From Amphiscolops sp. MND2022 (Eukaryota), in assembly GCA_964187785.1 (NCBI GenBank), contig OZ076409.1:75766001-75830000 (forward strand): 64,000 nt of DNA, written 5' to 3'. Below are positions 1 to 64,000 of the stretch, piece by piece. Every line of letters starts with the position of its first letter. The first letter of the stretch is position 1. The notes beneath the pieces are model-generated. The model was given only the letters and a program-made list of their open reading frames with translations. It made no database searches and was not told where the DNA came from. Made by a program: the position numbers and the translations under genes.

Positions 1-2960
1 GCTATGGTGACGCCCAAGAACCCATCAGTTTACTTGTGGGATGATTCTGTAAAAATTTAGTGTTTTCGTGCAGACTATGTTACATATTACATTGGGAACC
101 GTGTTTTTTTCTCTCCAAAATCATGTTTTTGAGTGCCCAAAAACTGTTTTTAAAGCCCAGTAGCCATCTAAAATGTACTTTTGCATAACATGGGGTGTGA
201 GTAACGTGAAGAAAGTGCTCACTGTGGATTTGGAGTTATGTCGAAAAAATCACCTGCCATTAGACGTTACATTACAGAAAATCGTACCTTACATATCGAT
301 TCATGGGTTGAGTCAAAAACAACTAAAGTTCTTTTTCAGTCAATCAAAACTCTTTTTTGTTCACAACCAAGTGTACTGCTGACGTCGAACCTGTTTTGAC
401 CTTCCACAATGGTTATAGTGCAATTTTGAGGTACAAAAGCCTCGTTGACAAACAAAATTCCAAGATGAAATTGCTTTCCAAATCATTTTTTGAAGTATAG
501 GAACGCCATTTTTAGCCGACAACCATCAAATATCCACTTCTCTTGGCCCAGTGGCTTGTGAAAAATACAACTGGGCATTGACAAGGCACAAGGACCTTAC
601 TTCGAGTAGTCATGTCCCACAATATTTGCTAATCGATAGCAAATTTTGTTGAAAATTGATACAACATCACATTTTTGGTGGACTCGAAATGACAAATTGG
701 AGCTTCTGCAGCAACTATAGGCTTTTAGTGCAACTCAGTGGCACTGTTATTTAGGAAAATACGGTCTACAGTAGTTTCATGCTACTTTTTCAGAATCTGA
801 GGTACATAAAAATATCATTCTGAATAGACATATGACTTAAACATTGGAATTTTTCCAGTTGTGTCACCACTTTTTTGGTATCAGCGGTCCTACCAACACT
901 GTTTTTGGTCTAAAACTAAACCCGAGGCTCAACCAAGATGTATATCAGACTTGTAAAATCAATGCAAGGACTTTCGGCATGTCAAAAGTACTGATAAGAA
1001 GAGAAACTTCTCAAAAAATCATGTTATGTGTCATATTCCACTCCACGTTTTTTAATCGGTGCTTGTCGGTTATGGTATTAACGCTCAACAACGACCTCAC
1101 TGACAACAAACAACTCGTTTATAGTCATTAAAAGTGTTTATAATACAACCATGCTTGGTCTGGACACATTTTTTATCCCATTCGTTCGTAACAATGAAAA
1201 ATTTTTCCCCAATAACCCAATTTTTGTCAGGTCGAAAACTGATTTCTCGTGTTTTGAACAACATTATTGTGTCTGGCGTAACCTGTGGCCTCCAAAATAC
1301 TGAAAAAGAGATATATGACTGGTATCAAATGCTTCAGTGACATGTGAGCCACGATAACACGTTTTGCAAAGAAAAATTCAACTTTCAACTGAAAATTTCG
1401 AAGACACATTTTCACAATAGAAACAGAATATATAACAATCTAACCTAATTCCCGTCAATTACTATTAATATAGTATCATTGTTGCGAATATGAGGTCCAT
1501 ACAGGGGTGTATGGGAAAAATATGGCGCATAAAGCATTGTGTAACACAAAGTTTACCAAAGTACTAAGAATTTGTCACGGTTTTTTTGCGCTCTAACTCA
1601 AAAATTTGATGGTGTAAACATCAATGAGCAGTTCAATTAGGTACGGTTTATCAACTGTGTATCTTTTTCAAAGTGCACGATCTTTCTGTTGTTCCAAACT
1701 CCTTTGTTAGGGCTGAAAAGTGTCATATGTTTTACAACGCAATGTTCATTAAAAGATACATTAGCAAAGACCGAATCAACTTCACAGCAGGTAATCAAAT
1801 TCTCAATACGTCTTTCAGTACTTGGATTTCGCAGACTATATAGATTTCATTTGCATTTTTATAAAGACTTTATAACTGAATCTTGCATTTTTATAAAGAG
1901 CTTATAAAAAATTTTCGTGATAGCCTTCCAAGTTGGCCTTCGGCCAACTTGGAAGGCTAACACTACAAACACCAAAAACCAGGAGTTCCTTTAATCTCAA
2001 AATAGGCGGGGAAACTTTCATTGAACTTCTTTTCTCACGTTAATTGATAACTTCAGGACATGAGCATTTCTATTCGCTATACGATGACCACCATTGTGTT
2101 CAAACAATAAATCTTTCCTTGTTACGCTTAAAAATACCATAAAGACTAACTTGAAACATATGAATTGTATGTGGAACGTACATTTATCTAACCAATGAGT
2201 GGCTACCCCTATTGGTTCCACGAAATCCTCTACCCCTCCACCAGACAGTACGTTACATCATACGTTGATGTATTCCACAGTGGTGACATAGGGCAAAAAA
2301 AGGAAATGGAGTTGGAGTGTATGTATTTCTAATGCATTTAAGTCAGCCACTTGTGATAGGAAAGGTTCAAAACTACGGAATAAATCTATCCTAGCTGAAA
2401 ATTATTTGGGCAAACACATGGCACACAAAAATACTTCAAAAATTTCCAGCAGTCAATTCCTTCCACAAAAATTTTTCTGTCCGATTGTGAATAATTTCAA
2501 TATTTGGAATTCGCCAGTCCCGTCATCTTCGCATCTCAGCTCGGTCACAACAGAGCTTTCTTTTTTACAATTCTCTCCACCCATTTCCACATAACGAGGA
2601 AGTTACGTTCACTATTCGGAGTGTTATTTGAGATTATAAGGCATTAATCACTGTAATGAACAATTACTTCTAATGTTGAAACTCTTCCACCTTTCTTTGT
2701 AAATTCTTAAAGTAGAACATCGCTTTTATTCAGCAGGAACGTCGCGTTGGCTTGCAGATTGATGGATAATAAGTGACAAGTAGCATTGTAAGGCATTACG
2801 TGTCGTGGAGATGCCAAATATGAAATACGTTGAACACAACAAAGACTACTTTTGTCAACAGAACGGAAAACGAAAATTTTATTGTTGAAAATTCTTATCT
2901 TTCTATACACAATTTCCTCGCTTCTCGGCAGTGTAACTGCAACAACCTCGCCTCCACTGG
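1..2960 (+). mobile_element. Family A unit (about 4.9 kb, alpha subtype), 5' part cut by window edge
   Basis: Collinear with the 3' about 2.96 kb of 15890-20786; ends ...cctcgcctccaCTGG followed by GTGGTCCGGGG. Confidence 0.75.
1921..1959. repeat. Perfect 18-bp inverted repeat with 3-nt loop in family A
   Basis: TAGCCTTCCAAGTTGGCC-TTC-GGCCAACTTGGAAGGCTA; identical copies start at 6818, 11717, 19744, 24641, 32766, 37660 and 42554. Confidence 0.95.
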
Positions 2961-2963
2961 GTG
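2957..2963. other. Junction core CT(A/G)GGTG, representative of 28 junctions
   Basis: Present at every unit boundary. New units start at 2961, 7857, 12763, 13811, 14842, 15890, 20787, 25683, 27876, 28909, 33808, 38698, 43593, 44860, 46132, 47402, 48672, 49941, 51207, 52489, 53768, 55054, 56344, 57653, 58925, 60196, 61461 and 62773. Confidence 0.9.
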
Positions 2964-5900
2964 GTCCGGGGCTGTTTTTGCCCCACAAGAAACTTTGCGA
3001 GGCCGGGGAGGGTCCCGATTGCCGAGCGCATTATCCAAAATACATCACTAGTCCACCGGGTCCGATTTCGGCGATTTTGGAATCTAACCATACGATTTTA
3101 ATAAAACTTTGCACACATACCTAAAATCAAATTATAAGAACTTTTTTCACCTGACGTATCATGATTGAAACATTTGTTGAAAAGTTATGTGCAAATGATC
3201 GTGTTTTTTGGCACTTTTTCGCATTTTTCACACAGTAGCTCCACACTTTATGCTATGCATTTGGCCCATTTTTTGCGTGCGAGGCATAAATGATGTCATG
3301 TTTACACATGCCAAAAATTATTCCTCAATTCGCAACAGGAGTGGAGATATGGCGGATAATATTGGCGGAAAATTTACCGAATACGAAAATTTGCACATAT
3401 TTGGCCAAAATTTGTTTCGAAAATGAGAAAAATCAAAAAGTCCGCGGATTGCGTTGAAACTTGGCAAAAAGGTAGTAGAACAAATTCTAAGAACTTTATC
3501 CTTCTGACGTTTTTCCGAAAAATTGCATCTTCTACCTATATTTGCAATATTTCGGGTTTTGTGATTCAAGGTGATTAATCACTCACATATTCAAAGTCCA
3601 TTTTCAGCATGAAGCAATGCAGATACCGCCAATGTGCACATATTGCAAAATCATCAACGGCCAACGGTCTACCGAACGGTCCAAAAAAATTTTCCCCTCT
3701 GGCCCAATCAAAGTGGTCAAAAGTGGCAAAAGGTTTTTTTCAACAGTATCACCATTACAAAATTGATGATTTGACCAGGAGGAACGGTCCGCACGGTCTC
3801 GGACCATTAGGTAAAAAAGTGTCAGTGAGTTATGGTGACGACCAAAATGACATCGGTTGACCTCTAAGAGGCCTTTGGAAAAATTTGATTTTTTTGAGTG
3901 ACGGTCCGAGTTGATCTGTTACGTTGTATCAACATTTCATAATCATGTTACTCATAACCGAGTACAGATAGCACCGTGGGTCATCTTTATCAAAATGAAC
4001 GTTGGGCAGCGGTCTAACGATTGAGTGCAAAAAATATACCTTAGCTGTCATAGTGAAAGAAAAAAATTTTCAGAAGTGTTGTTTTCAATTTTTCATGTCG
4101 ACTCGCAGTTACAAAAATGTGATTTTCTCTTCAGCAACGGTCCGAACGGTCTGGTACCATAAGATAAAAATTTGTCAGTGTGACATGGTGGCGCCCAAAA
4201 ACACATCAGAACAGTGGTAGGAAGCTTCTGAACAAATTTCGAATTTTCACGTAGGTCCGAGAGTTATAGTGTCACATCGTAACTACATTTCGGGTATGCA
4301 TATCTCCTCACAGAGTACAGATGGCATCATGGGTCACCTTTTCGAAAAAGAACGTGGACCACTGGTCAATCGATTGGTCATAAAAAGTTTTCAGTCACTG
4401 CTGCACGGCGTGCACAATATGCCAATATGGGGTATTTAGCATTTTTTTGCACGACTCGGACCTACAAAAGTCCCATTTCTGCTCCACCAACGGTCCGTAC
4501 GGTCTTGAACCATAAGGTCAAAAAGTGTCAGTGTGCTATGGTGACGCCCAAAAACCCATCAGTACACTTGTAGAGTGCTTCTGAAAAATTTTGGTATTTT
4601 CACGTGAGTCCGAGAGTTATAGAGAGTTATGTTGTCACATCGTAACTACTTTTCGGGTATGTATATCTCCTGACAGAGTACAGATAGCAACATGGGTCAT
4701 CTTTTGGAAAGTAAACGTGGCCCACTGGCCTACCGAATGGCGATAAAAAGTTTTCACTAGTTGCTACAGGGAATGATAAAAGTGCTTACATGTGTTACTT
4801 ACCATTTTTTTAGGCGACTCGGACTTACAAAAAGCTTATTTGCTCGCCAACAACGGTGTCTACGGTCTCCGACCATAAGGTCAAAAAAGTTTTGTGAGCT
4901 ATGGTGACGCCCAAGAACCCATCAGTTTACCTGTAGGATGATTCTGAAAAAATTTGTTTTTTTCCAGTTCACTATGTTAGATATTCCATGGCGAACCGTG
5001 TTATTTTTCCAACAAAATTATGTTTTTGAGTGCCCGAAATTAGTTTTTAAAGCACAATAGCCACATAAAATGTTGTTTTGCATAACATGGGATGTGAATA
5101 ACATGAAAAAAGTGCCCACTGTGAGTTTGGGGTCATTTTGGAAAAATCAGCTGCCATTGGACGTTACACATCAGAAAATCATACCTCACATATCAATATA
5201 TGGGATGAGTGAAAAATAGCTTATATGATTTTTCAGTCAATCAAGACCCTTTTTTGTTCACAACCACGTGTACAGCTGACGTTGAACGCATATTGACCTT
5301 CCGCAATGGTTACATTACGATTTTCAGTGACAAAAGCCCCGTTGACAAACAAAATTCCAAGATAAAGTTTGTTTCCAAATCATTTTTTGACGTATACGAC
5401 CGCCAATTTCTGCCCACACACATCAATTATCCACTTCTCTTAGTCCAGTGGCATGTGAAAAACACAACTAGGCATTGACAATCCACATACACTATAAATC
5501 GAGTAGTCATGGGCAACAATATTTACAAATCAGTAGTGAAATTTGTCTAAAATTGATAACACATCACAATTTTGTTGGAATCAAACTAGCAAAATGGAGG
5601 TTTATCAGCAACTTTTGGCTTTCACAGCAACCCACTGGCCCTGTAATATAGGAAAAGGGTGTTTACCGAACTTTTAAGGTTATATTTCAGAGTCTGAGGT
5701 AGCTAAAAATATCATACTGAAGAGACGCATGACTTCAACTTCAGTATTTTTCCCGATGTGTCAGCACTTTTTTGGTATCGGCGGTCCCACCAATACTGTT
5801 TTTGGTCTGACACTAAACCTTAGGATCAATCAAGGTGGATACCAGACTTGAAAAATCATTGCAAGGAATTTCGACATGTCAAAAGTAGTGATGACAGGAG

Positions 5901-7856
5901 ATATTTCCCAAAAATTCCAGTTATTTGTCACGTTCCATTGTGCCTTTTTTAATCGGTCCTTGTCGGTTATGGTATTAACGCTCAACAACAACCTCACTGA
6001 CAACAAACAACTCTTTTATAGTTATAAAAAGTATTTATAATACAACCATGCTCGGTCTGGACAGGTTTTTCATCCCATTCGTTGTTAACAAGCAAATTTT
6101 TTTCCCCAAAAACCCAATTTTTGTCAAGTCGAAAATTGATTTCCCGTGTTTTGAACAACATTATTGTGTCTGACGTAACCTGTGGCCTCCAAAATACTGA
6201 AAAACAGATATATGACTGGTATCAAATGCTTCATTGACATGTGAGCCACGATAACACGTTTTGCAAAGAAAAATTCAACTTCTAAGTTAAAATTTTGAAG
6301 ACACATTTTCATAATAAAAACAAAATTCATAAAAAGTAACTTATTTCCCGTCAAATACTATTGATATACTATCAGTGTTGCTAATATGAGGTCTATACAG
6401 CGGTGTATGGGAAAAATGTGGCGCATAAAGCATTGTGTAACACAAAACTTTCCAAAGTACTGCGCATTTTTCACTGTACTTTTTGGACTCTATGACAAAA
6501 ATTTGATAGTGTAAACATCAATGAGCAGTTCAATTTAGTACGAATATTCAACTGTGCATATGTTTCAAAGTGCACGATCTTTCTGTTGTTCCAAAATCCT
6601 TTGTTACGGCTGAAAAGATTCATATGTTTTACAACGCAATGTTCATTAAAAGATAAATTAGCAAAGACTGAATCAATTTTACAAAAGTTAACAAACTTGT
6701 CAATACGTCTTTCAGTACTTGGATTTTGCAGACTATATAGATCTGATTTGCATTTTTATAAAGACATTATAACTGAATATAGCATTTTTATAAAGAACTT
6801 ATAAAAAAATTTCGTGATAGCCTTCCAAGTTGGCCTTCGGCCAACTTGGAAGGCTAGCACTCCAAATACCAAAAAACAGGAGTTCCTCTATTCTCAAAAT
6901 AGCTGTGGACAGTTTCATTCAACTTTCTTTTCTCACGTTAATTGATAAATTCAGAACATAAACATTTCCATTCGCTATAAGGAGATCATAATTGAGTTCC
7001 ATAAAAACATCTTTCATTGTGTCGCTTAAAAATACCATAAAAACTAACTTGAAACATATGAATTGTATGTGGAACATACATTCTATTTACTAGTGAGTGT
7101 CTACCCTTATTGGCTCCACCAAATCCTCTACCCCTGCACTAGACAGTACGTTACATCATACGTTGATGTATTTCACAGTGGTGACATTGGGCCAAAAAAA
7201 ACGAAATGGAGTGTATGCATTGCTAATGTTATTAAGTCAGCCAATTGTGGTAGGAAAGGTTCAATACTACGAAAAATATCTATTCCAACTGAAAATGATT
7301 TGGGGCAAACACATGGCACACAAAAATACCTCAATAATTTTCACCAATCAATTTCTTCCACAAAAACTTTTGTGTCCGATGGTGTATAATTTCCTAATTT
7401 GGAATCAGCCAGTCACGTCATTTTCGCATCTCAGCTCGGTCATAACAGAGCGTTCTTTTTTGAAATTGTTTCTACCCAAATTCACGTAACGAGGCTGCTA
7501 CGTCCCCTATTTGGAGTGTTATTAGTGTTTATAAGGGATTAATCACTCTAATGAACATATACTTCTAATGTTGAAACTCTTTCACTTTTCTTTGTAAATT
7601 GTTAAAGTAGAACATTGCTGTTATTCAGCAGGAACTCGCTTTGGCTTGCCGAATGATGGAAAATAAATGACAAGTCGCCCTGTAAGGCACCACGTGTCGT
7701 GGGGATGACAAAAATAAAATAAGTTGAACACAACAAAGACTACTTTTGTCAACAGAAGGGAAAAAGAAAATTTTAATTATGAAAATTTTTCTGTTTTTTA
7801 ATACACATTTTCCTCGCATCTCGGCAGTGCAACTGCAACAACCTCGCCTCCACTGG
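2961..7856 (+). mobile_element. Family A unit, beta subtype (4896 bp)
   Basis: Starts GTGGTCCGGGGC, ends ccaCTGG; closely matches 38698-43592. Confidence 0.75.
3610..4950 (+). repeat. Diverged internal tandem subrepeat of family A, period about 353 bp, nearly 4 copies
   Basis: The ATGGTG(A/G)CG landmark recurs at 3832, 4185, 4538 and 4901 (spacing 353, 353, 363); present in every complete A unit. Confidence 0.85.
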
Positions 7857-10800
7857 GTGGTCCGGGGCTGTATTATGCCCCACAGTAGTCCTTGCGAGGC
7901 CGGGGAGGGTCCCGATTGCCGAGCGCATTATCCAAAATACATCACTAGTCCACCGGGTCGGATTTCGGCGATTTTGGAATCTAACCATACGATTTTAATA
8001 AAACTTTGCACACATACCTAAAATCAAATTATAAGAACTTTTTTCCCCTGACGTATCATCATTGAAACATTTGTTGAAAAGTTATGTGCAAATGATCGTG
8101 TTTTTTGGCCATTTTTCGCATTTTTCACACAATAGCTCCACACTTTACGCTATGCATTTGGCCCATTTTTTGCGTGCGAGGCATTTATGATGTCATGTTT
8201 ACACATGCCAAAAATTATTTCTCAATTCGCAACAGGAGTGGAGATATCGCGGATAATAGTGGCGGAAAATTTCATGATTACGAAAATTTGCACATATTTG
8301 CCCAACATTTGTTTGAAAAATGAGAAAAATTAAAAAGTCCGCGGATTGCGTTGAAACTTGGCACACAGGTAGTTGAACAAATTCTAAGAACTTTTTCTCT
8401 CTGACGTTTTTCCGAAAAATTGCATCTTCAACCTATATTTGCAATATTTCGGATTTTTTGATTCAAGGTGATTTATCACTCACATATTCAAAGTCCATTT
8501 TCAGCATGAAGCAACGCAGATACCGGCAATGTGCACAAATTGCAAAATCATCAACGGCCAATGGTCTACCGAACGGTCCAAAAAAATTTTGCCCTCGGGC
8601 CCAATGAAAGTGGCCAAAAGTGCCAAAAGCTTTTTTCCAACAGTATCACCATTACAAAATGGATGATTTGATCAGGAGGAACGGTCCGCACGGTCTCGGA
8701 CCATAAGGTGAAAAAGTGTCAGTGAGTTATGGTGACGACCAAAATGACATTGGTTGACCTCTAAGAGGCCTCTGGAAAAATTTGATTTTTTTGAGTCACG
8801 GTCCGAGTTGATCTGTTACGTTGTATGAACATTTCATAATCATGTTACTCATAACCGAGTACAGATAGCACCGTGGGTCATCTTTATCAAAATGAACATT
8901 GGGCAGCGGTCTAACGATTGAGTGCAAAAAATATACCTTAGTTGCCGTAGTGACAGAAAAAAATTTTCAGAAGTGTTGTTTTCAATTTTTCATGTCGACT
9001 CGCAGTTACAAAATTGTGATTTTCTCTTCTGCAACGGTCCGAACGGTCTCGGACCATAAGATCAAAATTTGTCAGTGTGACATGGTGGCGCCCAAAAACA
9101 CATTAGAACAGTGGTAGGAAGCTTCTGAACAAATTTCGAAATTTTACGTGGGTCCGAGAGTTATAGTGTCACATCGTAACTACATTTCGTGTATGCATAT
9201 CTCCTTACAGAGTACAGATAGCATCATGGGTCACCTTTTCGAAAAAGAACGTGGGCCACTGGTCTATCGATTGGTCATAAAAAGTTTTCAGTCACTGCTG
9301 CACGGCGTGCACAATATGCCAATATGGGGTATTTAGCATTTTTTTGCACGACTCGGACCTACAAAAGTCCCATTTCTGCTCCACCAACGGTCCGTACGGT
9401 CTTGAACCATAAGGTCAAAAAGTGTCAGTGTGCTATGGTGACGCCCAAAAACCCATCAGTACACTTGTAGAGTGCTTCTGAAAAATTTTGGAATTTTTAG
9501 GTGAGTCCGAGAGTTATAGAGAGTTATGTTGTCACATCGTAACTACTTTTCGGGTATGTATATCTCCTGACAGAGTACAGATAGCAACATGGGTCATCTT
9601 TTGGAAAGTAAACGTGGCCCACTGGCCTACCGAATGGTGATAAAAAGTTTTCACTAGTTGCTACAGGGAATGATAAAAGTGCTTACATGTGTTACTTACC
9701 ATTATTTTAGGCGACTCGGACTTACAAAAAGCTTATTTGCTCGCCAACAACGGTCTCTACGGTCTCCGACCATAAGGTCAAAAAAGTTTTGTGAGCTATG
9801 GTGACGCCCAAGAACCCATCAGTTTACCTGTAGGATGATTCTGAAAAAATTTTGCGTTTTCACGCTGACTATGTTACATATTACATAGGGAACCGCGTTC
9901 TATACCCTATCGAAATCATGTTTTTGACTGCCCAAAACCATTTTTTAAATCTCAATAACCACATAAAATGTTGTTTTGCATAACATGGGATGTGAATACT
10001 ATGGAAATAGTGCCGACTGTGGGTTTGGAGTCATTTTGAAAAAATCAGATGCCATTGGACGTTATACATCAGAAAATGATACCCCACATATCAATATATG
10101 GGTTGAGTGAAAAATAGCTTAAATGCTTTTTCAGTCAACCAAGACTCTTTTTTGTTCACAACCACGTCTACAGCTGACGTGGAACACATATTGACCTTCC
10201 GCAATGGATATATTGCGATTTCGAGTGACAAAAGCCCCGTTGACAAACAAAATTCGAAGATAAAATTTGTTTCCAAATCAATTTTTGTCGTATAGGACCA
10301 CCAATTTTTGCCCACAAACATCAACTATCCATTTCTCTTAGCCCAGTGGCATGTTACTAATACAACTGGGCTTTAACAAGGCACGTACACTATAATTGGA
10401 GTAGTCATGGGAAACAATCTTTACAAATCAGTAGTGAAACTTGTCAAAAATTGATAAAGCATCACAATTTTGGTGGAGTCGAACTAACAAAATGGAACTT
10501 TATCAGCAACTATTGGCTTTTAACGCAACCCACTGGCCCTGTAATACACGAAAATGATGTTTACTGCACTTTTAAGGTTATATTTCAGAGTATGAGGTAG
10601 CCAAAAATATCATACTGAATAGACGCATGACTTCAACTTCAGTATTTTTCCCGATGTGTCACCACTTTTTTGGTATCGGCGGTCCCACCAAGACTATTTT
10701 TGGTCTAACACTAAACCTGAGGGTCAACCAAATTGGATAACATACTTGAAAAATCAATGCAAGGAATTTCGACCTGTCAAAAGTAGTGATTACAGGAGAT

Positions 10801-12762
10801 ATTTCCCAAAAATTCATGTTATTTGTCACGTTCCATTATGCCTTTTTTATTCGGTCCTTGTCGTTTATGGAATTAACGCTCAACAACGACCTCACAGACA
10901 ACAAACAACTTGTTTACAGTTTTAAAAAGTATTTATAATACAACCATGCTCGGTCTGGACAGATTTTTCACACCATTCGTTCCTAACAAGAAAAAATTTT
11001 TCCCCAAAAACCCACTTTTTGTCAGGTCGAAAATTGATTTCCCGTGTTTTGAACAACAATAATGTGTCTGACGTAACTTGTGGCCTCCAAAATACTGAAA
11101 AACAGATATATAACTGGTATCAAATGCTTCAGTGACATGTGAGCCTCGATAACACGTGTTTCAAAGAAAAATTCAACTTTTAAGTGAAACTTTTAAAAAC
11201 ACATTTTCATAATAAAAACAGAATTCATAAAAAACTAACCTGTTTCCCGTCAAATACCATTATTATACTATCAGTGTTGCTAACATGAGGTCTATACAGC
11301 AGCGTATGGGAAAAATGTGGCGCATAAAGCATTGTGTAACACATAGCTTACCGAAGTACTGAGAATTTTTCACTGTACTTTTTGAACTCTATCACAAAAA
11401 TTTGATAGTGTAAACATCAATGAGCAGTTCAATTTAGTAGGATTATTCAACTGAGCATATGTTTTAAAGTGCACGATCTTTCTGTTCTTCCAAACTCCTT
11501 TGTTACGGCTGAAAAGAGTCATATGTTTTACAACGCAATGTTCATTAAAAGATAAATTAGCAAAAACTGAATCAACTTAACAAAAGCTAACTAAATTCTC
11601 AATACGTCTTTCAGTACTCGGATTTTGCTAACTATATAGACTTGATTTGCATTTTTATAAAGAGCTTATAACTGAATCTTACATTTTTATAAAGAGCTTA
11701 TAAAAAAAATTCGTGATAGCCTTCCAAGTTGGCCTTCGGCCAACTTGGAAGGCTAACACTACAAACACCAAAACACAGGAGTTCCTCTACTCTCAAAATA
11801 GTTGGGGTTATTTCATTCAGCTTTCTTTTCTCACGTTAAATGATAAATTCAGAACATAAGCATTTCCATTCGCTATAGGATGACCACCATTGAGTTCAAT
11901 AAATACATCTTCCATTGCGTTGCTTAAAAATATCATAAAAACTAACTTGAAACATATGAATTGTATGTGGAACGTACATTCATATTACCAGTGAGTGTCT
12001 ACTCCTATTGGCTCCACGAAATTCTCTACTCCTTCACCAGACAGTACGTTACATCATACGTTGATGTCTTTCATAGTGGTGACATTGGGGCAAAAACTGA
12101 AATGGAGTGTATGCACTGCTAATACTTTTAATTCAGCCATTTGTGGTATGAAAGGTTCAATACTACAGAATAATTATCTTGTAACTGAACCTTAATTGGG
12201 CAAACACATGTCACATAAAAATACTTCAAAAGTTTTCTGCAGTCAATTTCTTCCACAAAAATTTTCTTGTCCGACGGAGTATAATTTCAAAACTTGGAAC
12301 CCGCCAGTCACGTCATCTTCGCATCTCAGCTCCGTCATAACAAAGCGTTCTTGGTTAAACAAATCTCTCCACCCAATTTCACCTAATGAGGCAATTACGT
12401 TGACTATTTGAAGTGTTATTGAAGCTTCTAAACGATTAATCATTTTGAAGAACAAATACTTCTAATGTTCAAACTCCTTTACTTTTCTTTGATAATTACT
12501 AAATTATAACATCGCTGTTGTTGAGCAGGAACACGCGGCGGTTCGCAGAATGATGAGAAATAAGTGGCAAGTAGCCCTGTGCGCTACCACGTGTCGTTGG
12601 GGGATGAGAGCTATGAAAAAAGTTAAACACAACAAAGACTACTTTTGTCAACGAAAGTTTACAGACGGAAAAATGATCACTTTTTAATATAAAATTTCTA
12701 CTTTTTATACACAATTTCCTCGCATCTCGGCAGTGCAACTGCAACAACCTCGCCTCCACTGG
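7857..12762 (+). mobile_element. Family A unit, gamma subtype (4906 bp)
   Basis: Same termini and collinear with other A units; distinct substitution set in the 3' 3 kb. Confidence 0.75.
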
Positions 12763-52488: not shown

Positions 52489-53767
52489 GTGGCCGTGTCT
52501 TTTCGACGTGCTTTTGCATCGAGGAGTGGGTAGGGCCCCGCGACGACCTAGAAGAATTGGATGCTCACCGAAACGTGCAGAATTCTACGAGATCTCATAG
52601 TTTGAGCCATACGATTTTTCTGAAATTTGGCATGTGGCCTGGAATTGGTGAGTAGGTAAAACGTGTAGGAGGTAATTTTTCCCAAATTCCATTGTGAGAG
52701 GAGATATGGGCAAATAACGGACCCAAAAATGGGGAAAATGCACTTTTTTCAAGTTTGTCAGCCAATATCTCATTTCCAGGTGCCCGTAGCGTTCCGCACG
52801 TGGACATTAATATTGCTCAGCGCTGTTAGAAGAGTGCGTGGACAAATTTTGGTTCAAATCGGACTGAAACTTGGCGAGAAATTAACGGTTTTTTGGGCGT
52901 TTCCGGGGTAAATTTTTTAACGGTCCAGCTTATCTTTGCCATTTTTTCGAAAATGTACTTGCCTAAAGGCCTCCCCCTGGCCGAATTTCCTCCCAGCAAA
53001 CCCATTTGGCCCTAAATACGGAGTTTCAGCGTTCCAGCATTTCCGGGCGAAAAGTTGTGGGACTTAGAAAAATTTCAAAATTTTTCAAAAAATTTTTTTT
53101 CCGTTTTCCGCCCCCCCAGAGGGGAAAAGACCCCCCAACCAGTATTTTGAGGGATTGCATGTCGAAAGCCCTTGTTTTGACGAGAAAAATACCGTTTAGA
53201 ACATCTTTTTATTTTAACTTGACGTTGACTAATGACGTTTTGAATGTGATGTTTGGACGTGTGAGGCATGTGAAAAGTTGATGTTTTGAGTCTTTATCTC
53301 ATGTGAAAGCGATTGAGATGCAAGCTGTACTGCTCAAAACGTCTTTCGTTGTAGTTTTCCAGTGCCGCAATAACCTTTGATGTCATTTGAATATACTTTT
53401 CTTCGATATATTAACAATTTTATTGTATTTATTCCAATTTTTGTTATCTTATAACTCAAAACAGTTGAGTACATTTCATCTCCCTTTCGGGGGAGATGAG
53501 AATGTACTCGCTAAAAACCTAGTGCTATTGCGCCGCAATGATTGCAAAAGTTGTTTTTACTGCTGTTCCACAAGCATTTTTAAACTGACTTTTTTAAAAC
53601 TATTAATTAACTTAAAGTACATTACTTGAACTTACTACTAATACCACCTATCTCTAACGTCAACGCCCCCTGCTTGCATCAACGCCCCATCGTCCGTGGG
53701 CATGCCGAGGCATGCCCTTCGACGACGTATGCCAAATGCCCAGTGCCACGCAGTCTTTCCCCGCTAG
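52489..53767 (+). mobile_element. Family D unit 8 (1279 bp)
   Basis: Left arm like unit 7, different right arm. Confidence 0.72.
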
Positions 53768-55053
53768 GTGCCGGGATTTCTATTCGATAAAGTATGTGGC
53801 GCGTGTGGGTAGGGTCCCTGGCGCGCTCTTGGGTATGGTGTTCACCAGCTAGGAAATAGGGGTCGATTTTTCGGGATCTCCTAAACTAGCCACACGATTT
53901 GGCTGAAATTTGGCCCACGTACCCCCCTCGGCACGGTGAAGATGATTTCCTACTGACGTTTTTCCCGCAAAATTTTTTTTGTTGTCCAAAATAACGGTTT
54001 TTGGGGTAAAATTTTGAATTTTTTTTAAATTTCATCTTATATCTCGCCACCGGTTTACGCTAGCGCTTCAAAACCCTGCTAAAGAAAGCTTGCAAACTGT
54101 CTCAGGAATGCGGTGTGAAATTTTCAGCTCAATCGGACTTAAACTCGGGGAGATATAGCGTTTTTCCGGAGCGGGGGGGTTTCATTTTTCTAACGGTCCA
54201 GCTTATCTTTGCCATTTTTTCGAAAATGCACTCGCCTAAAGGCCTCCCCTGGCCGGTTTTATTCCCAGCAAAACCATTTGGCCCTAAATACGGAGTTTCA
54301 GCGTTCCAGCATTCCCGGGCGAAAAGTTGTGGGACTTAGAAAAGTTCAAAAATTTTCAAAAAATTTTTTTTCCGTTTTCCGCCCTCCCCCCTAGGGGAAA
54401 AGACCCCCCAACCAGTAATTTGAGTGAATTCATGTGGAAAGGCCATGTTTAGAGGAGAAAAATGCCGTTTAGAACGTCTTTTTATCTTGGCTCAACGTTG
54501 ACTTATGACGTTTTGAAGGTGATGTTTGGAGGTGTAAAGCACGTGAATAGTAAACGTTATGAGTATTTATCTGATCTGAAAGCCATTGAGATGCAATATG
54601 GTTTGCTCAAAACGTAATTCATGGCAGTTTGGCAATCAATCAACACCCTTTGTTGTCGTTTGACATATTTTTTTGTTGTTATAATAAAAAATTTTGTGTA
54701 TTTATTCATTTTTTTCTCATCAAATAACTTGAAACAGTTGAGTACATTCCATCCCCCCCTTCCGGGGGAGATGAGAATGTACTCGCAAAAAGCACCGAAC
54801 TACGGCCCTTACCTTCCCGAGCTACGCAGTATAAGGATTACATATTGGTTCCGACATTTTCATAGAGTTAAATCTTGGTAATCTGTCTGGATATGCAGAA
54901 AAATCAGCACGTGCCTTTTAATACCAAGTTGCTTACAACGACAATTATTTTATATCAACGCCCCCATATTTATCAACGCCCCCCGTCCGTGGGCATGCCG
55001 AGGCATGCCCTTCGACGACGTATACCAAGATATGTTCGAGCGCGTTAGCCTAG
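53768..55053 (+). mobile_element. Family D unit 9 (1286 bp)
   Basis: Head gtgccgggatttctattcgataaag; right arm shared with units 10 and 16. Confidence 0.72.
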
Positions 55054-56343
55054 GTGCCGGTGTTTTTTTACACAATGGGGGAAGTTGCGCGGTTGGGGAG
55101 GGTCCCTGACGCGCTTCCGTGGTATCGGGTCTTTCAACCGATGAAAACGACATAAAAAATTGGGATCTCGTAAACTAGCCATACGATTTGGCTGAAATTT
55201 GGCACACGTACCCCCCTCGGCACGGTGAAGATGATTCCCTACTGACGTTTTTCCCGCTAAACATTTTTTGTTGACCAAAATAACGGTTTTTGGGGTAAAA
55301 TTTTCAACTTTTTTTAAATTTCATCTTATATCTCGCCACGGGTTTACGCTAGCGCTTCCAAACCTTGCTGACGAAAGTTTGCAAACTGTCTCAGGAATGC
55401 GGTGTGAAATTTTCAGCTCAATCGGACTTAAACTCGAGGAGATATAGCGTTTTTCCGGAGCGGGGGGGTTTCATTTTTCTAACGGTCCAGCTTATCTTTG
55501 CCATTTTTTCGAAAATGCACTCGCCTAAAGGCCTCCCCTGGCCGGTTTATTCCCAGCAAAACCATTTGGCCCTAAATACGGAGTTTCAGCGTTCCAGCAT
55601 TCCCGGGCGAAAAGTTGTGGGACTTAGAAAATTTCAAAAATTTTCAAAAATTTTTTTTTCCGTTATTTGGGCCCCCAAAGTGGGGGAAAAGACCCCCCAA
55701 CCAGTAAAGCAAGTGAATGCATGTGCAAAGCCCTTGTTTAGAGGAGAAAAATGCCGTTTAGAACGTCTTTTTATCTTGGCTCAACGTTGACTTATGACGT
55801 TTTGAAGGTGATGTTTGGAGGTGTAAAGCACGTGAATAGTAAACGTTATGAGTATTTATCTGATCTGAAAGCCATTGAGATGCAATATGGTTTGCTCAAA
55901 ACGTAATTCATGGCAGTTTGGCAATCAATCAACACCCTTTGTTGTCGTTTGACATACTTTTTTGTTGTTATAATAAAAAATGTTGTGTATTTATTCATTT
56001 TTTTCTCATCAAATAACTTGAAACAGTTGAGTACATTCCATCCCCCCTTCCGGGGGAGATGAGAATGTACTCGCAAAAAGCACCGAACTACGGCCCTTAC
56101 CTTCCCGAGCTACGCAGTATAAGGATTACATATTGGTTCCGACATTTTCATAGAGTTAAATCTTGGTAATCTGTCTGGATATGCAGAAAAATCAGCACGT
56201 GCCTTTCAATACCAAGTTGCTTACAACGACAATTATTTTATATCAGCGCCCCCATATTTATCAACGCCCCCCGTCCGTGGGCATGCCGAGGCATGCCCTT
56301 CGACGACGTATACCAAGATATACATAAGCGCGGTAGCCGCTAG
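55054..56343 (+). mobile_element. Family D unit 10 (1290 bp)
   Basis: Head gtgccggtgtttttttacacaatgg; ends ccgCTAG. Confidence 0.72.
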
Positions 56344-57652
56344 GTGCCGGGATTTCTATTCGATAAAGTATGTGGCGCGTGTGGGTAGGGCCCCTGGCGC
56401 GCTCTTGGGTATGGTGTTCACCAGCTAGGAAATAGGGGTCGATTTTTCGGGATCTCCTAAACTAGCCATTCGATTTGGCTGAAATTTGGCACACGTACTC
56501 CCCTCGGCACGGTGAAGATGATTTCCTACTGACGTTTTGCTCGCAAAATTTTTTTTGTTGTCCAAAATAACGGTTTTTGGGGTAAAATTTTGAATTTTTT
56601 TTAAATTTTATCTTATATCTCGCCACGGGTTTACGCTAGCGCTTCAAAACCCTGCTAAAGAAAGCTTGCAAACTGTCTCAGGAATGCGGTGTGAAATTTT
56701 CAGCTCAATCGGACCTAAACTCGGGGAGATATAGCGTTTTTCCGGAGCGGGGGGGTTTCATTTTTCTAACGGTCCAGCTTATCTTTGCCATTTTTTCGAA
56801 AATGCACTCGCCTAAAGGCCTCCCCTGGCCGGTTTTATTCCCAGCAAAACCATTTGGCCCTAAATACGGAGTTTCAGCGTTCCAGCATTCCCGGGCGAAA
56901 AGTTGTGGGACTTAGAAAAATTTCAAAAATTTTCAAAATTTTTTTTTCGGTTTTCCGCCCTCCCCCCGAGGGGAAAAGACCCCCCAACCAGTAATTTGAG
57001 TGAATTTATGTGGAAAGGCCATGTTTAGACGAAAAAATTGCCGTTTAGAACGTCTTTCTATCTCAACCTGACATTGACTTATGAAGCTTTAAAGGTGATG
57101 TTTGGACGTGTGAAGCATGTAAAAAAAGGAATTTTTTTGATTTTATTTCATCAGAAAGTCATTGAATCACACGCTGTGAAGCCCAGAGCGTGGTTTCTAA
57201 TAGTTTGGTATCGTTTAAACGCATTTTGGTGTCTTTTTACTCTGTTTAAAAAACTTTTCTCCTGAAAATTAATAAATTTTGATTACTTTTCTTACTTTCC
57301 ATTAATTTTTTTTCTTATATTTTTACTTGAAACAGTTGAGTACATTCCATCTCCCTTCCCGGGGGAGATGAGAATGTACTCGCAAAAAGCCGCGAACTAC
57401 GGCCCATACCTTCCCGAGATACGCAGTATAAAGATAACATAATGGTCCAGACATTTTAATGGAGTTGTATCTTGGTAATATGTCTGGATTTGCAGAAAAA
57501 TCAGCACGTGCCATTTTATACCAAGTTGCTCGCAACGACAATTAATTTAAATCAACGCCCCCCACAAAAATCAACGCCCCCCGTCCGTGGGCATGCCGAG
57601 GCATGCCCTTCGACGACGTATGCCAAAGATATTCCCGAGCGCGTTAGCCTAG
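56344..57652 (+). mobile_element. Family D unit 11 (1309 bp)
   Basis: Head as unit 9; right arm shared with unit 15. Confidence 0.72.
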
Positions 57653-58924
57653 GTGGCCGGAAATTTTTTTTTTCATCAAAATCTTTGCCATTGGGGGAGG
57701 GGCCCCGGATGGCCAGTAGTACGGGATAGCTTCCTACCAAATCCAGATGGAAAAAACGTGATTTCGGAAACTAGCCGTCAGAATTTGCTCAAATTTTGCA
57801 TACGGCTTCCGATGACAATCCTAAGAACTAATCCCTACTGGCATTTTGCCCAAAAAACGCAAAAAGTTGGTCAAAATCTTAGTTTTTTGGTCAAAAAATA
57901 GCGTTTTTTCGAAAAAAATTTTTTTCAGAGACAATTACTCGTAACTGGTTCACCCAGCGCAAAAACGCCTAGCTGATTTATTGTTGGGCACTTCATGAGG
58001 AGTGCGTATACAAATTTTCGTCCAAATCGGATAAAAGTTGATTGAGAAATAACTGAAAATTTGAGGCATTTTTTTGGAAATTTTTGAAATCCCAGTCTAT
58101 CTCTGCCGTTTTTTGCCCAGATTTTTTTCCAGACACTCTCCTAAAGACCTCCCCTGGCCGGTTTACCTCCCAGCAAAACCATTTGGCCCTAAATACGGAG
58201 TTTCAGCATTCCAGCAAACCCCGGGTAAAAGATAAATGACTTAGAATTTTTTCGAAAAATTTTCAAAATTTTTTTTTTTCAAATTCAGGCCTCCCAAAGT
58301 AAAGAAACTTCCACACAACTAGGATTGCAAGTGATAGCATGTGGAAAGTGCTTGAATAGACGAGAATAATTAGCTATTATACGACTCTGTAGCTTAACCT
58401 GACGTTGACTTATGATAATTTTAGTGTGAGCTTCGTTTGTGCTTAAAAAATCAAAGAAACCTAAAAGTCTTTTAAAAGTAATCAGAATACGTCCAATCAA
58501 CCACAGAGCTGTTAAATTGCCGTTGTGTAGTAGAGCAACACCATTTAGAGTGTTTTGACCCATTTTGACAAGTTTTGATACAGTCTTGTTCATCCAATAG
58601 CTTAAAACAGTTGAGTACATTCCATCTCCCTCCTTGTGGGGGAGATGAGAATGTACTCGCTAAAAGTCAGGCACTATAGCGCCCATTTGTTTTATTCGAC
58701 GCTAGCGATGCTATTGCACACGAATACAATAGTTTTGTCAAATCATGTTTGACATGATGAATCTTACTATACCTTTAGTTTACGTTAACCTACTACTACA
58801 ACATCGCATCCGTAACGTCAACGCCACATACTCGCGTCAACGCCCACCGTCCGTGGGCATGCCGAGGCATGCCCTTCGACGACGTATGCCAAATAGCGCC
58901 ACAAGGCGCAAACTTGTCCGCTAG
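57653..58924 (+). mobile_element. Family D unit 12 (1272 bp)
   Basis: Same variant as unit 2. Confidence 0.72.
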
Positions 58925-60195
58925 GTGCCGGGATTACTATTCGTTCGAGTATGTGGCGCGTGTGGGTAGGGCCCCTGGCGCGCTCTTGTGTTTCGGGTTT
59001 TCCTACTCCTAAACCGCGTTCAGATTTTCGGGATCTCGTAAACTAGCCATACGATTTGGCTGAAATTTGGCACACGTACCCCCCTCGGCACGGTGAAGAT
59101 GATTTCCTACTGACGTTTTTCCCGCTAAACATTTTTTGTTGACCAAAATAACGGTTTTTGGGGTAAAATTTTCAACTTTTTTTAAATTTCATCTTATATC
59201 TCGCCACGGGTACACGCTAGCGCTTCCAAACCTTGCTGACGAAACCTTGCAAACTGTCTCAGGAATGCTGTGTGAAATTTTCAGCTCAATCGGACTTAAA
59301 CTCGGGGAGATATAGCGTTTTTCCGGAGCGGGGGGGTTTCATTTTTCTAACGGTCCAGCTTATCTTTGCCATTTTTTCGAAAATGCACTCGCCTAAAGGC
59401 CTCCCCTGGCCGGTTTTATTCCCAGCAAAACCATTTGGCCCTAAATACGGAGTTTCAGCGTTCCAGCATTCCCGGGCGAAAAGTTGTGGGACTTAGAATT
59501 TTTCAAAAATTCTCAAAAAATTTTTTTCCGTTATTTGGGCCCCCAAAGTGGGGGAAAGCACGCCCCAACCAGTAAAGCAAGTGAATGCATGTGGAAAGCC
59601 CTTGTTTAGACAAGAAAAATGGCGTTTAGAATGTCTTTTTATCTTAACTTGACATTGACTTTTGTCGTTTTGAAGGTGACCGTTAGATACAGAAAATTGA
59701 TATTTTGAGTATTTATCCCATCTGAAAGCCATTGAGATACAACATGTTTTGCTCAAAACGTGTTTCATTGCAGTTCCGCTGTCCATTGACACCCTTTGAT
59801 GTCTTTTGACGTAATTTTCTTTTCTATAATGACAATTTTTTTGTGTATTTATTCATTTTTTTCTCATCAAATAACTTGAAACAGTTGAGTACATTCCATC
59901 TCCCTTCCCGGGGGAGATGAGAATGTACTCGCTAAAGGTCAGGAACTACGGTCTATATCTTCCACAACACAAAAGCAATTGAAAATTGTTTCAGTTTGTC
60001 GCAGAAAACTTTTCTTTTTGCACTCAGAGACTCGGCAAAGTGAACGATTTTGACCCATATTGAATCTTACTTTACCACAACTCATCTCTAACGTCAACGC
60101 CCCCCACACACATCAACGCCCCCCGTCTGTGGGCATGCCGAGGCATGCCCTTCGACGACGTATAGCAAAATATATTCGAACGCGGTAGCCGCTAG
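58925..60195 (+). mobile_element. Family D unit 13 (1271 bp)
   Basis: Same variant as unit 3. Confidence 0.72.
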
Positions 60196-61460
60196 GTGCC
60201 GGGATTTCCATTCGTTCAGGGAAGATGCGCGCTGTTGGGGAGGGTCCCGGGCGCGCTCAGGTGTTTTGGGTCTTTCAACTTTCCAGAACGGGTCTGCTGG
60301 GAACGATCTCGAAAACTATCCATACGATTTGGCTGAAATTTTGCATGTGGCTCCCAATGGACATTGTAAGAACAAATCCCTACTGGCGTTTTGCTGGGAA
60401 AAATCAAAATGTTGGTCAAAAATGCAATTTTCCGACAAAATTTTTGACTTTTTTTTCTTTGACAGTCAAAATCTCGCCACAGGGTCACGCTAGCTACCCT
60501 AAACCCTGCTAATTATAATTTGCAATCTGTCTCAGGAATGCGGTGTGAAATTTTCAGGTCAATCGGACTTAAACTCAGCGACTTAGAACGATTTTTTAGG
60601 TGCATTTTTTGACATTTTTTGCATTTGCTGATTTATCTCTGCCGTTTTTTGCCCAGATTTTTTTTGAGACCCTCTCCTAAAGACCTCCCCTGGCCGGTTT
60701 ACCTCCCAGCAAAACCATTTGGCCCTAAATACGAAGTTTCAGCGTTCTAGCATTCCCGGGCGAAAAGTTGTGGGACTTAGAAAATTTTTTTGGAAACGCA
60801 AAATGTGTAAAGTCAACTTCAGGCCTCCCAAAGTCAAAGAACTTCCACACAACTAGGATTGCAAGTGGATGCATGTGGAAAGTACTGGGATAGACGAGAA
60901 AAATGAGCTATAGAACGTCTCTGTAGCTTAACCTGACGTTGACTTATGACCTTTTGAGTGTGAGCTTGCTATGCGAGAAAAAATGCAAAACATGAAAATG
61001 GAAGCAAAGTATCGTCGAAAACACATCATAAGCTGTTCAACTCATCCTAGAGCGGTTTATTTACAGTTGTTTAGTAGAGCAACACCATTCATGATCATGT
61101 GACCCATTTTTATGGGGAATGAGATTGTCTTATTCATCCGATAGCCCAAAGCAGTTGAGTACATTCCATCTCACCTCCGTGTGAGATGAGAATGTACTCG
61201 CTAAAGTCCAGGTACTACAGCCCATATTGGTTTTATGCGACGCTCTGTATGCAAACTAGCATACTTGAAATTTTTTTAGCTGATATTTTTTTAAACTGCA
61301 CTTTGACTCTGACCTGACATACTGAATATTTAGTCCTTATAACATACACATAATTAACGTCAACGCCCCATCCTTGCATCAACGCCCACCGTCCGTGGGC
61401 ATGCCGAGGCATGCCCTTCGACGACGCGCACCAAAATATTCCCCGAGCGCGTTAGCCTAG
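60196..61460 (+). mobile_element. Family D unit 14 (1265 bp), divergent variant
   Basis: D termini, core and hairpins; arms unique in this window. Confidence 0.72.
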
Positions 61461-62772
61461 GTGCCGGGATTTCTATTCGATAAAGTATGTGGCGCGCCTT
61501 GGGTAGGGTCCCTTGCGCGCTCTTGGGTATGGTGTTCACCAGCTAGGAAATAGGGGTCGATTTTTCGGGATCTCCTAAACTAGCCACACGATTTGGCTGA
61601 AATTTGGCACACGTACTCCCCTCGGCACGGTGAAGATGATTCCCTACTGACGTTTTTCCCGCAAAATTTTTTTTGTTGTCCAAAATAACGGTTTTTGGGG
61701 TAAAATTTTGAACTTTTTTTAAATTTCATCTTATATCTCGCCACGGGTTTACGCTAGCGCTTCAAAACCCTGCTAAAGAAAGCTTGCAAACTGTCTCAGG
61801 AATGCGGTGTGAAATTTTCAGCACAATCGGACTTAAACTCAAGGAGATATAGCGTTTTTCCGGAGCGGGGGGGTTTCATTTTTCTAACGGTCCAGCTTAT
61901 CTTTGCCATTTTTTCGAAAATGTACTCGCCTAAAGACCTCCCCTGGCCGGTTTTATTCCCAGCAAAACCATTTGGCCCTAAATACGGAGTTTCAGCGTTC
62001 CAGCATTCCCGGGCGAAAAGTTGTGGGACTTAGAAAAAATTCAAAAATTTTCGAAATTTTTTTTCCGTTTTCCGGCCCCTCCCCCGAGGGGAAAAGACCC
62101 CCCAACCAGTAATTTGAGTGAATTCATGTGGAAAGGCCATGTTTAGACGAAAAAATTGCCGTTTAGAACGTCTTTCTATCTCAACCTGACATTGACTTAT
62201 GAAGCTTTAAAGGTGATGTTTGGACGTGTGAAGCATGTAAAAAAAGGAATTTTTTTGATTTTATTTCATCAGAAAGTCATTGAATCACACGCTGTGAAGC
62301 CCAGAGCGTGGTTTCTAATAGTTTGGTATCGTTTAAACGCATTTTGGTGTCTTTTTACTCTGTTTAAAAAACTTTTCTCCTGAAAATTAATAAATTTTGA
62401 TTACTTTTCTTACTTTCCATTAATTTTTTTTCTTATATTTTTACTTGAAACAGTTGAGTACATTCCATCTCCCTTCCCGGGGGAGATGAGAATGTACTCG
62501 CAAAAAGCCGCGAACTACGGCCCATACCTTCTCGAGATACGCAGTATAAAGATAACATAATGGTCCAGACATTTTAATGGAGTTGTATCTTGGTAATATG
62601 TCTGGATTTGCAGAAAAATCAGCACGTGCCATTTTATACCAAGTTGCTCGCAACGACAATTAATTTAAATCAACGCCCCCCACAAAAATCAACGCCCCCC
62701 GTCCGTGGGCATGCCGAGGCATGCCCTTCGACGACATGCACCAAAATATGCCCCGAGCGCGTTAGCAGCTAG
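61461..62772 (+). mobile_element. Family D unit 15 (1312 bp)
   Basis: Same variant as unit 11. Confidence 0.72.
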
Positions 62773-64000
62773 GTGCCGGTGTCTTTTTACACAATGGGGG
62801 AAGTTGCGCGGTTGGGGAGGGTCCCTGACGCGCTTCCGTGAGATCAGGTTTTTCAACTAGTGAAATCGACAAAGAAAATTGAGATCTCGTAAACTAGCCA
62901 TACGATTTGGCTGAAATTTGGCACACGTACCCCCCTCGGCACGGTGAAGATGATTTCCTACTGACGTTTTTCCCGCTAAACATTTTTTGTTGACCAAAAT
63001 AACGGTTTTTGGGGTAAAATTTTCAACTTTTTTTAAATTTCATCTTATATCTCGCCACGGGTGCACGCTAGCGCTTCCAAACCTTGCTGACGAAAGTTTG
63101 CAAACTGTCTCAGGAATGCTGTGTGAAAATTTCAGCTCAATCGGACTTAAACTCGAGGAGATATAGCGTTTTTCTGGAGCGGGGGGGTTTCATTTTTCTA
63201 ACGGTCCAGCTTATCTTTGCCATTTTTTCGAAAATGCACTCGCCTAAAGGCCTCCCCTGGCCGGTTTTATTCCCAGCAAAACCATTTGGCCCTAAATACG
63301 GAGTTTCAGCGTTCCAGCATTCTCGGGCGAAAAGTTGTGGGACATAGAAAATTTCAAAAATTTTCAAAAATTTTTTTTTTCGTTATTTGGGCCCCCAAAG
63401 TGGGGGAAAAGACCCCCCAACCAGTAAATCAAGTGAATGCATGTGGAAAGGCCATGTTTAGACGAGAAAAATGCCGTTTAGAACGTCTTTTTATCTTGAC
63501 TCAACGTTGACTTATGACGTTTTGAAGGTGATGTTTGGAGGTGTAAAGCAAGTGAATAGTAAACGTTATGAGTATTTATCTGATCTGAAAGCCATTGAGA
63601 TGCAATATGATTGCTCAAAACGTAATTCATTGCAGTTTGGCAATCAATCAACACCCTTTGTTGTCGTTTGACATACTTTTTTGTTGTTAAAATAAAAAAT
63701 TTTGTGTATTTATTCATTTTTTTCTCATCAAATAACTTGGAACAGTTGAGTACATTCCATCCCCCCCTTCCGGGGGAGATGAGAATGTACTCGCAAAAAG
63801 CACCGAACTACGGCCCTTACCTTCCCGAGCTACGCAGTATAAGGATTACATATTGGTTCCGATATTTTCATAGAGTTATAACTTGGTAATCTGTCTGGAT
63901 ATGCCGAAAAATCAGCACGTGCCTTTTAATACCAAGTTGCTCACAACGACAATTATTTTATATCAACGCCCCCATATTTATCAACGCCCCCCGTCCGTGG
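62773..64000 (+). mobile_element. Family D unit 16, 3' end cut by window edge
   Basis: Same variant as unit 10; the window ends at the start of the terminal hairpin. Confidence 0.7.

Follow-up and report, generated by a model that had tools for sequence, protein, structure and literature searches.

Helitron-like elements chained at one recurrent join in megabase arrays of the Amphiscolops genome

The window analysed here is a stretch of 64,000 nucleotides (nt) from the eukaryote Amphiscolops sp. MND2022 (assembly GCA_964187785.1, 1.07 Gb; contig OZ076409.1, positions 75,766,001 to 75,830,000, or G000:C1:75.77-75.83 Mb in our labels). It holds 29 units arranged head-to-tail and meeting at 28 base-precise CTRG|GTG joins; these units, the long autonomous elements found in the same kind of array and the joins that link them are the subject of this report. 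On the plus strand the motif CT[AG]GGTG occurs 28 times in the window, each time at a unit boundary, against a mean of 4.5 and a maximum of 9 in 50 base shuffles. An earlier sequence-only reading of this DNA had described the 29 units with their sizes, order and CT(A/G)G|GTG boundaries, as well as a GTG start in place of the TC of Helitrons; the whole description was confirmed, and GTG opens all 28 window starts and host-flanked copies too.

The units fall into four size classes, A (n=8, 4,890-4,906 nt), B (n=4, 1,031-1,048 nt), C (n=1, 2,193 nt) and D (n=16, 1,265-1,312 nt), in the order A A A B1 B2 B1 A A C B2 A A A, then 16 D, all on the plus strand. The first three A units, of about 4.9 kb, non-autonomous and running from GTG to CTGG, lie at 1-2960 (cut by the window), 2961-7856 and 7857-12762. 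They are followed by B1, B2 and B1 (12763-13810, 13811-14841, 14842-15889), two A units (15890-20786, 20787-25682), the C unit (25683-27875, GTG...CTAG), a B2 unit (27876-28908) and three further A units (28909-33807, 33808-38697, 38698-43592). The 16 non-autonomous D units occupy 43593-64000, with starts at 43593, 44860, 46132, 47402, 48672, 49941, 51207, 52489, 53768, 55054, 56344, 57653, 58925, 60196, 61461 and 62773. Units 1 and 29 are clipped by the window edges alone and are complete in the flanking DNA (4,894 and 1,291 nt). The first of the 28 joins, CTGG|GTG at 2957-2963, unites the tetranucleotide that ends one unit with the invariant start of the next; we propose such a join as a candidate nick site and preferred target. 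The A units carry an internal 363-bp tandem repeat in about 2-2.4 copies (for example 4124-4964). No transposase coding remnant was found in any window unit, and an Rfam scan of the window gave no match. The absence of nested insertions and truncated units, pointed out earlier, holds for the window, although two nested insertions exist inside one D copy on C8.

The four size classes had been taken for four different element families. As size classes they stand; their supposed unrelatedness does not, and judged by their sequences the classes are related to one another. A and B have their initial ~360 nt in common (67% identity), C and D agree in a 3' hairpin motif and in internal blocks, and a hairpin core at about +40 to +55 recurs in 27 of 28 unit starts, C being the exception. 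The two B1 units are 99.9% identical, and B1 and B2 are alike only over their first ~610 nt (96%). D is made up of subfamilies whose end-to-end identity is 62-99%. The D units are relatives of the autonomous elements described below, which encode a fused Rep and helicase (RepHel): at the 5' end they are alike over at most ~770-870 nt (67-86%), and near the 3' end over ~50-130 nt (82-96%). C and D have their ends in common with autonomous units, and A and B their 5' hairpin only.

The 5' subterminal stem-loop is exemplified at 2990-3025 (plus strand), with the core GG[GT]AGGG-n-CC at 3006-3016. Its arms co-vary between unit types (mean paired run 4.9 versus 3.5 when swapped, 0/300), and we propose it as the putative Rep-binding part of an origin. 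The 3' subterminal hairpin of C and D, for example at 46062-46081 (plus strand), ends ~43-57 nt before the unit end and has no counterpart in A or B; a stable fold is missing from many 3' end types. Almost every unit type has CTRG, GTG and a stem-loop that lies 30-65 nt inside the start; these features alone are so widely shared, the 3' ends being otherwise diverse. Among 198 junction contexts, selected with a CTNG filter, the end tetranucleotide is CTAG in 166 and CTGG in 27. Self-BLAST, which could miss repeats of 8-15 nt, detected no terminal inverted repeats. As a separate observation, the last 25-50 nt of the D units (44856-62772) are hypervariable between the 3' hairpin and CTAG; these tails frequently have a small stem-loop of their own and are apparently exchanged between subfamilies.

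About 1% of a same-strand array of ~5.5 Mb (C1:70.45-76.01 Mb) falls inside the window; the array starts at C1:70,454,838 and has a host-flanked end at 76,005,437. Both edges were read, and the interior is known from seven-kb samples (20 in total, inside and outside the array). The 10 samples between the edges consist of 88-100% element DNA with plus-strand joins, one contains the left edge, and eight of the nine outside samples have 0% element DNA; the remaining one, at 76.38 Mb, belongs to a second array. Further arrays lie elsewhere on C1, on C2, C3, C6, C8 and C10 and on small contigs. Genome-wide, 5,224 sequences match the start pattern, unrelated repeats among them (116 in the control), and the C unit has at least ~40 near-full copies. 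A centromeric nature of the arrays was considered and not adopted: they lie mid-arm on C1, at the end of C2 and near the start of C3, several per chromosome.

Several arrays deserve mention in their own right. A mini-array of 16 kb and ~8 units at C1:29.528-29.544 Mb (L034:5102-9000, L035:1-3035), placed between coding segments of CFAP69 on the opposite strand and flanked as CTAG|...CTAG|TT, is a young array seeded in a host gene. The orientation switches inside an array at C1:23.977-23.980 Mb (L028:5274-7640), and in the array regions of C2 and C3 the strand of the RepHel matches changes as well. The unplaced contig C38 (672-28847) holds a long run of B1/B2-type ends at ~1.04 kb spacing in irregular order. 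One C copy adjoins a run of N at C4:59.04 Mb (L121:3150-3355), so that some arrays are not fully readable. That the assembly itself chained dispersed repeats into arrays is barely credible: copies differ by 1-38%, their order is not periodic, and many chromosomes carry arrays whose host edges are clean; one array, of 16 kb, lies inside a host gene.

Long relatives with the same termini had been suggested as carriers of either an HUH Rep/helicase or a tyrosine recombinase, and the first of these was found. Units of 12-17 kb with identical joins lie in the same arrays and encode intact proteins of 2,200-2,600 amino acids (aa) that combine a Y2-type HUH Rep, a Pif1-like helicase and a C-terminal GIY-YIG domain. 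The window units, without transposase remnants, are non-autonomous mobile units, as the sequence-only reading had held. In a sister array, a unit of 13,675 nt with precise joins has an open frame of 2,377 residues in which Pfam recognises Helitron_like_N, PIF1 and GIY-YIG. PF14214 and PF05970 are above cut-off in the RepHel proteins, and the Rep motifs FxT, ExQ..HxH and YxxxY can be aligned. Searching the genome with the Rep region gave 127 matches (from 121 scored candidates of 462), dozens of them in open frames of 2,200-2,600 aa and mostly within arrays; Rep-region identity among the long matches ranges from 28 to 100%. Between two RepHel frames, the third-position excess is 0.33/0.22/0.61. 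The model of the Rep core (predicted local distance difference test, pLDDT, 41.6) was unusable.

Ten long units were read, the 13,675-nt unit and nine more from eight regions, all selected by, or found to contain, RepHel frames; three of the additional nine have D-type ends on both sides. The autonomous unit nearest to the window (C1:75,839,108-75,851,337; 12,230 nt, 2,349-aa RepHel frame) starts 9.1 kb past its end. Nine of the ten keep a downstream gene whose product, separate from RepHel, is predicted to be an OB-fold protein. Its model (pLDDT 80) matches CST (Foldseek E 1e-4) and RPA (2e-4), both OB-fold single-strand binding proteins, and aligns with Mcm10 (Z 9.8, root-mean-square deviation 3.8, 117 aligned); its language-model neighbours are POT1/CTC1, with recognition below threshold.

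The autonomous units show other variation. A second accessory frame of 220-275 aa is present in some (L030:4362-5027 minus; L053:110-778; L059:1602-2426), without a Pfam or PDB match, the 222-aa copy included; the L053 and L059 frames are 34% identical, and the frame may resemble SGNH hydrolases. An OTU-like protease domain occurs in some clade members (L047:1687-2853; P0020, P0025, P0027). In one local family RepHel is spread over three frames, perhaps split by introns, and several copies have one short central frame in common. Minisatellites of 76 nt lie between the RepHel and accessory genes at positions 8,200-10,000 of the 13,675-nt unit (L030), and repeats of 336 nt in a 4.76-kb unit family (L164, L165).

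The GIY-YIG domain raises the question of a second nuclease, which would cut or nick resident joins like a homing endonuclease before Rep delivers the strand. The domain is present in all 67 database relatives with a complete C-terminus and in none of 12 HLE1/HLE2 frames, some of them partial, and its GIY, YIG and Arg motifs seem intact in three local families. Such a role is nonetheless improbable, since the motifs are clearly degenerate in three of eight aligned local families and partly so in two more, where joins are still precise. Moreover, the break falls exactly at the point required for HUH end-joining, and therefore no second nuclease is needed.

The target can be read from copies flanked by host DNA. 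Elements begin with GTG, finish with CTRG and enter on the 3' side of a CTNG tetranucleotide, after which GT or TT is the usual continuation. The host bases before the first GTG are CTNG in 7/7 resolvable cases, three more being not resolvable (CTTG in three, CTAG in two, the rest CTGG or CTCG), and base +2 past the host-flanked element end is T in 8/9. Paralogues give the empty sites: CTTG^GT in five of the six read and ATTG in one (3/9 were not matched by the locator), and CTAG^GT in both paralogues of the large array's left flank, with sequences such as CTTG^GTCC and CTAG^GTAT. The two insertions inside the D copy on C8 used CTTG^GT and CTGG^GT, which lie 13 nt from each other. As element-end and target tetranucleotides differ in five cases, two more being ambiguous, there is no target duplication, and since each element ends with CTRG, the target is rebuilt on insertion. 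Integration at a junction with regeneration of the target, as proposed from the window, is upheld by these solo copies and empty sites; the target itself is not GGTG. It is CTNG^(G/T/A)T, which corresponds to the arrangement of IS91, whereas HLE1 and HLE2 use A^T or T^T.

The target data also bear on a cassette array of integron or Crypton type, with a tyrosine recombinase acting on the 7-nt join. Base-precise joins in one orientation would suit it, as would two cases in which the same tetranucleotide stands on both sides like a short direct repeat. The two sides differ, however, in the five cases just mentioned, and no recombinase family was detected in the frames scanned of the 10 RepHel-selected long units, no genome-wide recombinase search having been made. 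We regard this explanation as very improbable. Because the enzyme is Helitron-like and the scanned frames show no sign of a recombinase, the integron-like growth once suggested describes the layout of the arrays only.

Use of the joins far exceeds what the short target would predict. D-type ends followed by CTDGGTG number 4,861 and an extended version of the motif has 4,962 copies, a comparison of two patterns of different length (controls 0). About 98% of D-type ends adjoin another element. Matches followed by a base other than G number 240, and of the first 100 of these listed, 92 are an internal look-alike. Among the first 100 copies of the motif, 6 are isolated. All 20 C copies examined (91-100% identical) have distinct neighbour pairs, and three 95-99% copies of one autonomous element lie in arrays on three chromosomes with different neighbours. 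From base composition we estimate ~1.5 million CTNGGT sites genome-wide for ~5,000 counted starts, so that chance would bring fewer than 1% of insertions to joins. An enzyme-directed preference for joins is, in our judgement, highly probable.

Another account would have a short CTNG^GT preference only, the arrays arising from rare chance insertions at element ends, then rolling-circle concatemers, unequal crossing-over and selection against dispersed copies. It would accommodate the runs of like units, the adjacent 99% pair, the long B runs on C38 and the chimeric units, together with solo copies and nested insertions at non-join sites, and tandem Helitron arrays are known (PMC5876387, PMC11934779). 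We consider it unlikely in view of the low expected chance use of joins, of the 23 internal CTNGGT hexamers of the window units, none of which is interrupted against 28 joins, and because crossing-over, with a mere 7 nt shared, could not create 20 distinct neighbour pairs that all meet at one base. The sequence-only reading was right that crossing-over alone does not join unlike units, near-identical copies having unrelated neighbours; it had left to crossing-over the runs of like units only, and duplication and recombination at the local scale play a part as well (adjacent 99% pair, chimeric B units, C38).

Overall, the window is probably best explained by non-autonomous units of a divergent Helitron-like clade that use joins both as origin and as target. 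The origin would be split over the element ends, with CTRG contributed by the target or the upstream unit, then the nick, GTG and the 5' stem-loop, so that every join would form a complete origin. Rep would nick one join, the helicase would peel off one strand, and Rep would terminate on reaching the following join. The product would be a circle one unit long, closed by the same kind of CTRG|GTG junction. Still bound to that origin, Rep would move the strand preferentially into a resident join, recognised by the same signals. Bare CTNG^NT sites would be used rarely and would seed new arrays, and concatemer insertion and unequal crossing-over would extend the runs of like units. Such a scheme is plausible because Helraiser cleaves its own end-to-end junction precisely (PMC5876387). 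Two tandem viral origins release a unit-length circle (PMC8513466, citing Stenger 1991), and this replicational release of plant DNA viruses follows the same logic as the release proposed for the arrays, by analogy only. That origin-to-origin release is the reason for the join preference is an idea towards which we lean slightly.

A number of points weigh against this explanation. Neither activity nor a circle or transcript has been observed, and the end that is nicked first is not readable from sequence. The count of D-type ends compares patterns of unequal length, and the insertions behind it may not all be independent. Folding z-scores over the whole 80 nt of 5' ends are mostly weak, the C unit lacks the hairpin core sequence and has a 5' hairpin of different sequence, and the 3' hairpin of C/D is possibly a terminator of the ordinary kind. 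A 3' end of A or B type was found on no autonomous element, the 3' regions of ~10 further RepHel families lying outside the comparison, and mobilisation of A and B is therefore assumed to occur in trans. Lastly, putting the left and right flanks of the large array together does not restore an empty site, so that a single seed site for it is not supported.

The elements almost certainly belong to a divergent Helitron-like rolling-circle lineage. Their transposase groups with neither HLE1 nor HLE2 in two unrooted trees with 6-7 references (two HLE1 and four to five HLE2 frames, Pfam-typed, from the same assembly), which carry a long-branch warning: array proteins and database relatives form one side of a long branch from HLE1/HLE2, with support of 100 in the Shimodaira-Hasegawa approximate likelihood-ratio test (SH-aLRT) under two models. 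The first tree included 24 database relatives, 8 of 48 rows without a domain being left out; the second, made with a quick mixture model, had 27 chosen rows, 12 of them database relatives, with one long-branch HLE2 row left out. Independent characters point the same way, the GIY-YIG domain among them. DUF6570 is absent from all seven local and five database clade proteins scanned, versus its presence in seven of eight HLE2 reference frames. Of 150 relatives, 133 have an HUH motif spacing of 7-11 residues and 17 gave no match; in all ten reference frames that have the motif the spacing is 5. Two HLE2 frames lie on the small contigs L111 (C1762) and L112 (C1384), one with a deviant residue composition, and possibly stem from a co-assembled organism.

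A profile search of databases returned 416 cluster representatives at E<=1e-30, and viral contigs searched held no relative. Sixteen metagenome loci with 32-57% guanine-plus-cytosine content have the same gene set, with homologues of the OB-fold family in 5 of the 15 examined. No copy pairs define termini at these loci and nothing matches the local junction motif; the chaining habit is therefore shown for this genome only. HELIANO reports at least four further clusters without description (PMC11417382). The lineage is apparently undescribed, as the literature searched yielded no account of the clade or of mixed junction-homing arrays; Repbase, Dfam and the unclassified HELIANO clusters were not compared, and the protein clade may therefore already have unnamed entries there. 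Chances seem evenly balanced that this is a fourth deep lineage of eukaryotic rolling-circle transposons, with RepHel-GIY-YIG, an OB-fold gene and an origin completed only at element-element joins.

Helitrons are thought to insert with dinucleotide specificity only, and a tandem array of them has been interpreted as a concatemer of a single element. In this genome many intact families, with Rep-region identities of 28-100%, queue at one base-precise join over megabases, which offers a direct test case for target choice and termination by HUH transposases. The arrays also suggest how transposons could give rise to a satellite-like chromosome domain with no homology to start from, show an IS91-like rule of targeting at work in a eukaryote and may offer a regenerable landing site for large DNA. 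On the reading as a fourth deep lineage, the joins would be both launch and landing site in a widespread lineage, and very different autonomous and non-autonomous families would share self-built, strand-polarised megabase arrays. These would serve the elements as a safe harbour of their own, and the attachment site in them would be defined and regenerable. Such a clade would escape tools that seek TC...CTRR ends or inverted repeats.

Comparison with known systems sets these elements apart. With HLE1 and Helraiser they share Rep and a Pif1-like helicase, a CTRR 3' end, the absence of target duplication, an OB-fold accessory gene (RPA in HLE1) and reported head-to-tail tandem arrays (PMC11417382, PMC5876387). 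They differ in beginning with GTG and not TC, in empty sites CTTG^GT and CTAG^GT in place of A^T, and in having no hairpin 10-15 nt before the 3' end, that of C/D being ~43-57 nt away. HLE2 (Helitron2, Helentron, FoHeli) resembles them in its 5' hairpin, long transposase, OTU domain in some relatives and internal satellites. One moss HLE2 carries GIY-YIG, and the targets of HLE1 and HLE2 are A^T and T^T (PMC11417382); FoHeli1/2 insert after TNAT, and FoHeli3-5 are described as lacking a 3' hairpin (PMC5148889). In contrast to HLE2, the local clade has no DUF6570, no T start and no T^T or T^C target, and forms a separate branch. Tandem, centromeric or subtelomeric Helitrons appear in several of a wider set of reports (PMC3627910, PMC8788227, PMC13404089, PMC11934779, PMC5148889, PMC13286980, PMC10288648, bioRxiv 10.64898/2026.09.17.752431), with no mixed junction-homing arrays in the portions available.

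The Paramecium Helitrons, a third clade, likewise stand outside HLE1/HLE2 and combine sequence-targeted, strand-polarised insertion with an end tetranucleotide (CCAA) that matches the target repeat and with internal satellites (PMC13085455). Their target is a telomeric repeat, whereas the local ends are CTRG and their flanks are other elements or ordinary host DNA; one Hel01 copy, translated by eye, has a 5-residue motif spacing and no GIY-YIG-like tail. Replitrons are eukaryotic HUH elements that enter on the 3' side of a short RG target, always in one orientation (PMC10288648), but have terminal direct repeats and no helicase, unlike the fused helicase and the GTG and CTRG ends found here. 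By their defining features the array elements are none of HLE1, HLE2 and Replitron, nor members of the Paramecium clade as far as this can be judged. IS91 is an HUH rolling-circle element with a tetranucleotide target (5'-CTTG/GTTC) beside the palindromic origin end, a terminal cleavage tetranucleotide CTCG and no duplication (PMC13181058). It is helicase-free and prokaryotic, in contrast to the helicase-fused Rep of a eukaryote, and the available part of its description does not mention homing to its own joins; the likeness is put forward as one of working features only. Taken together, the system of Amphiscolops works like a Helitron with an IS91-type target rule.

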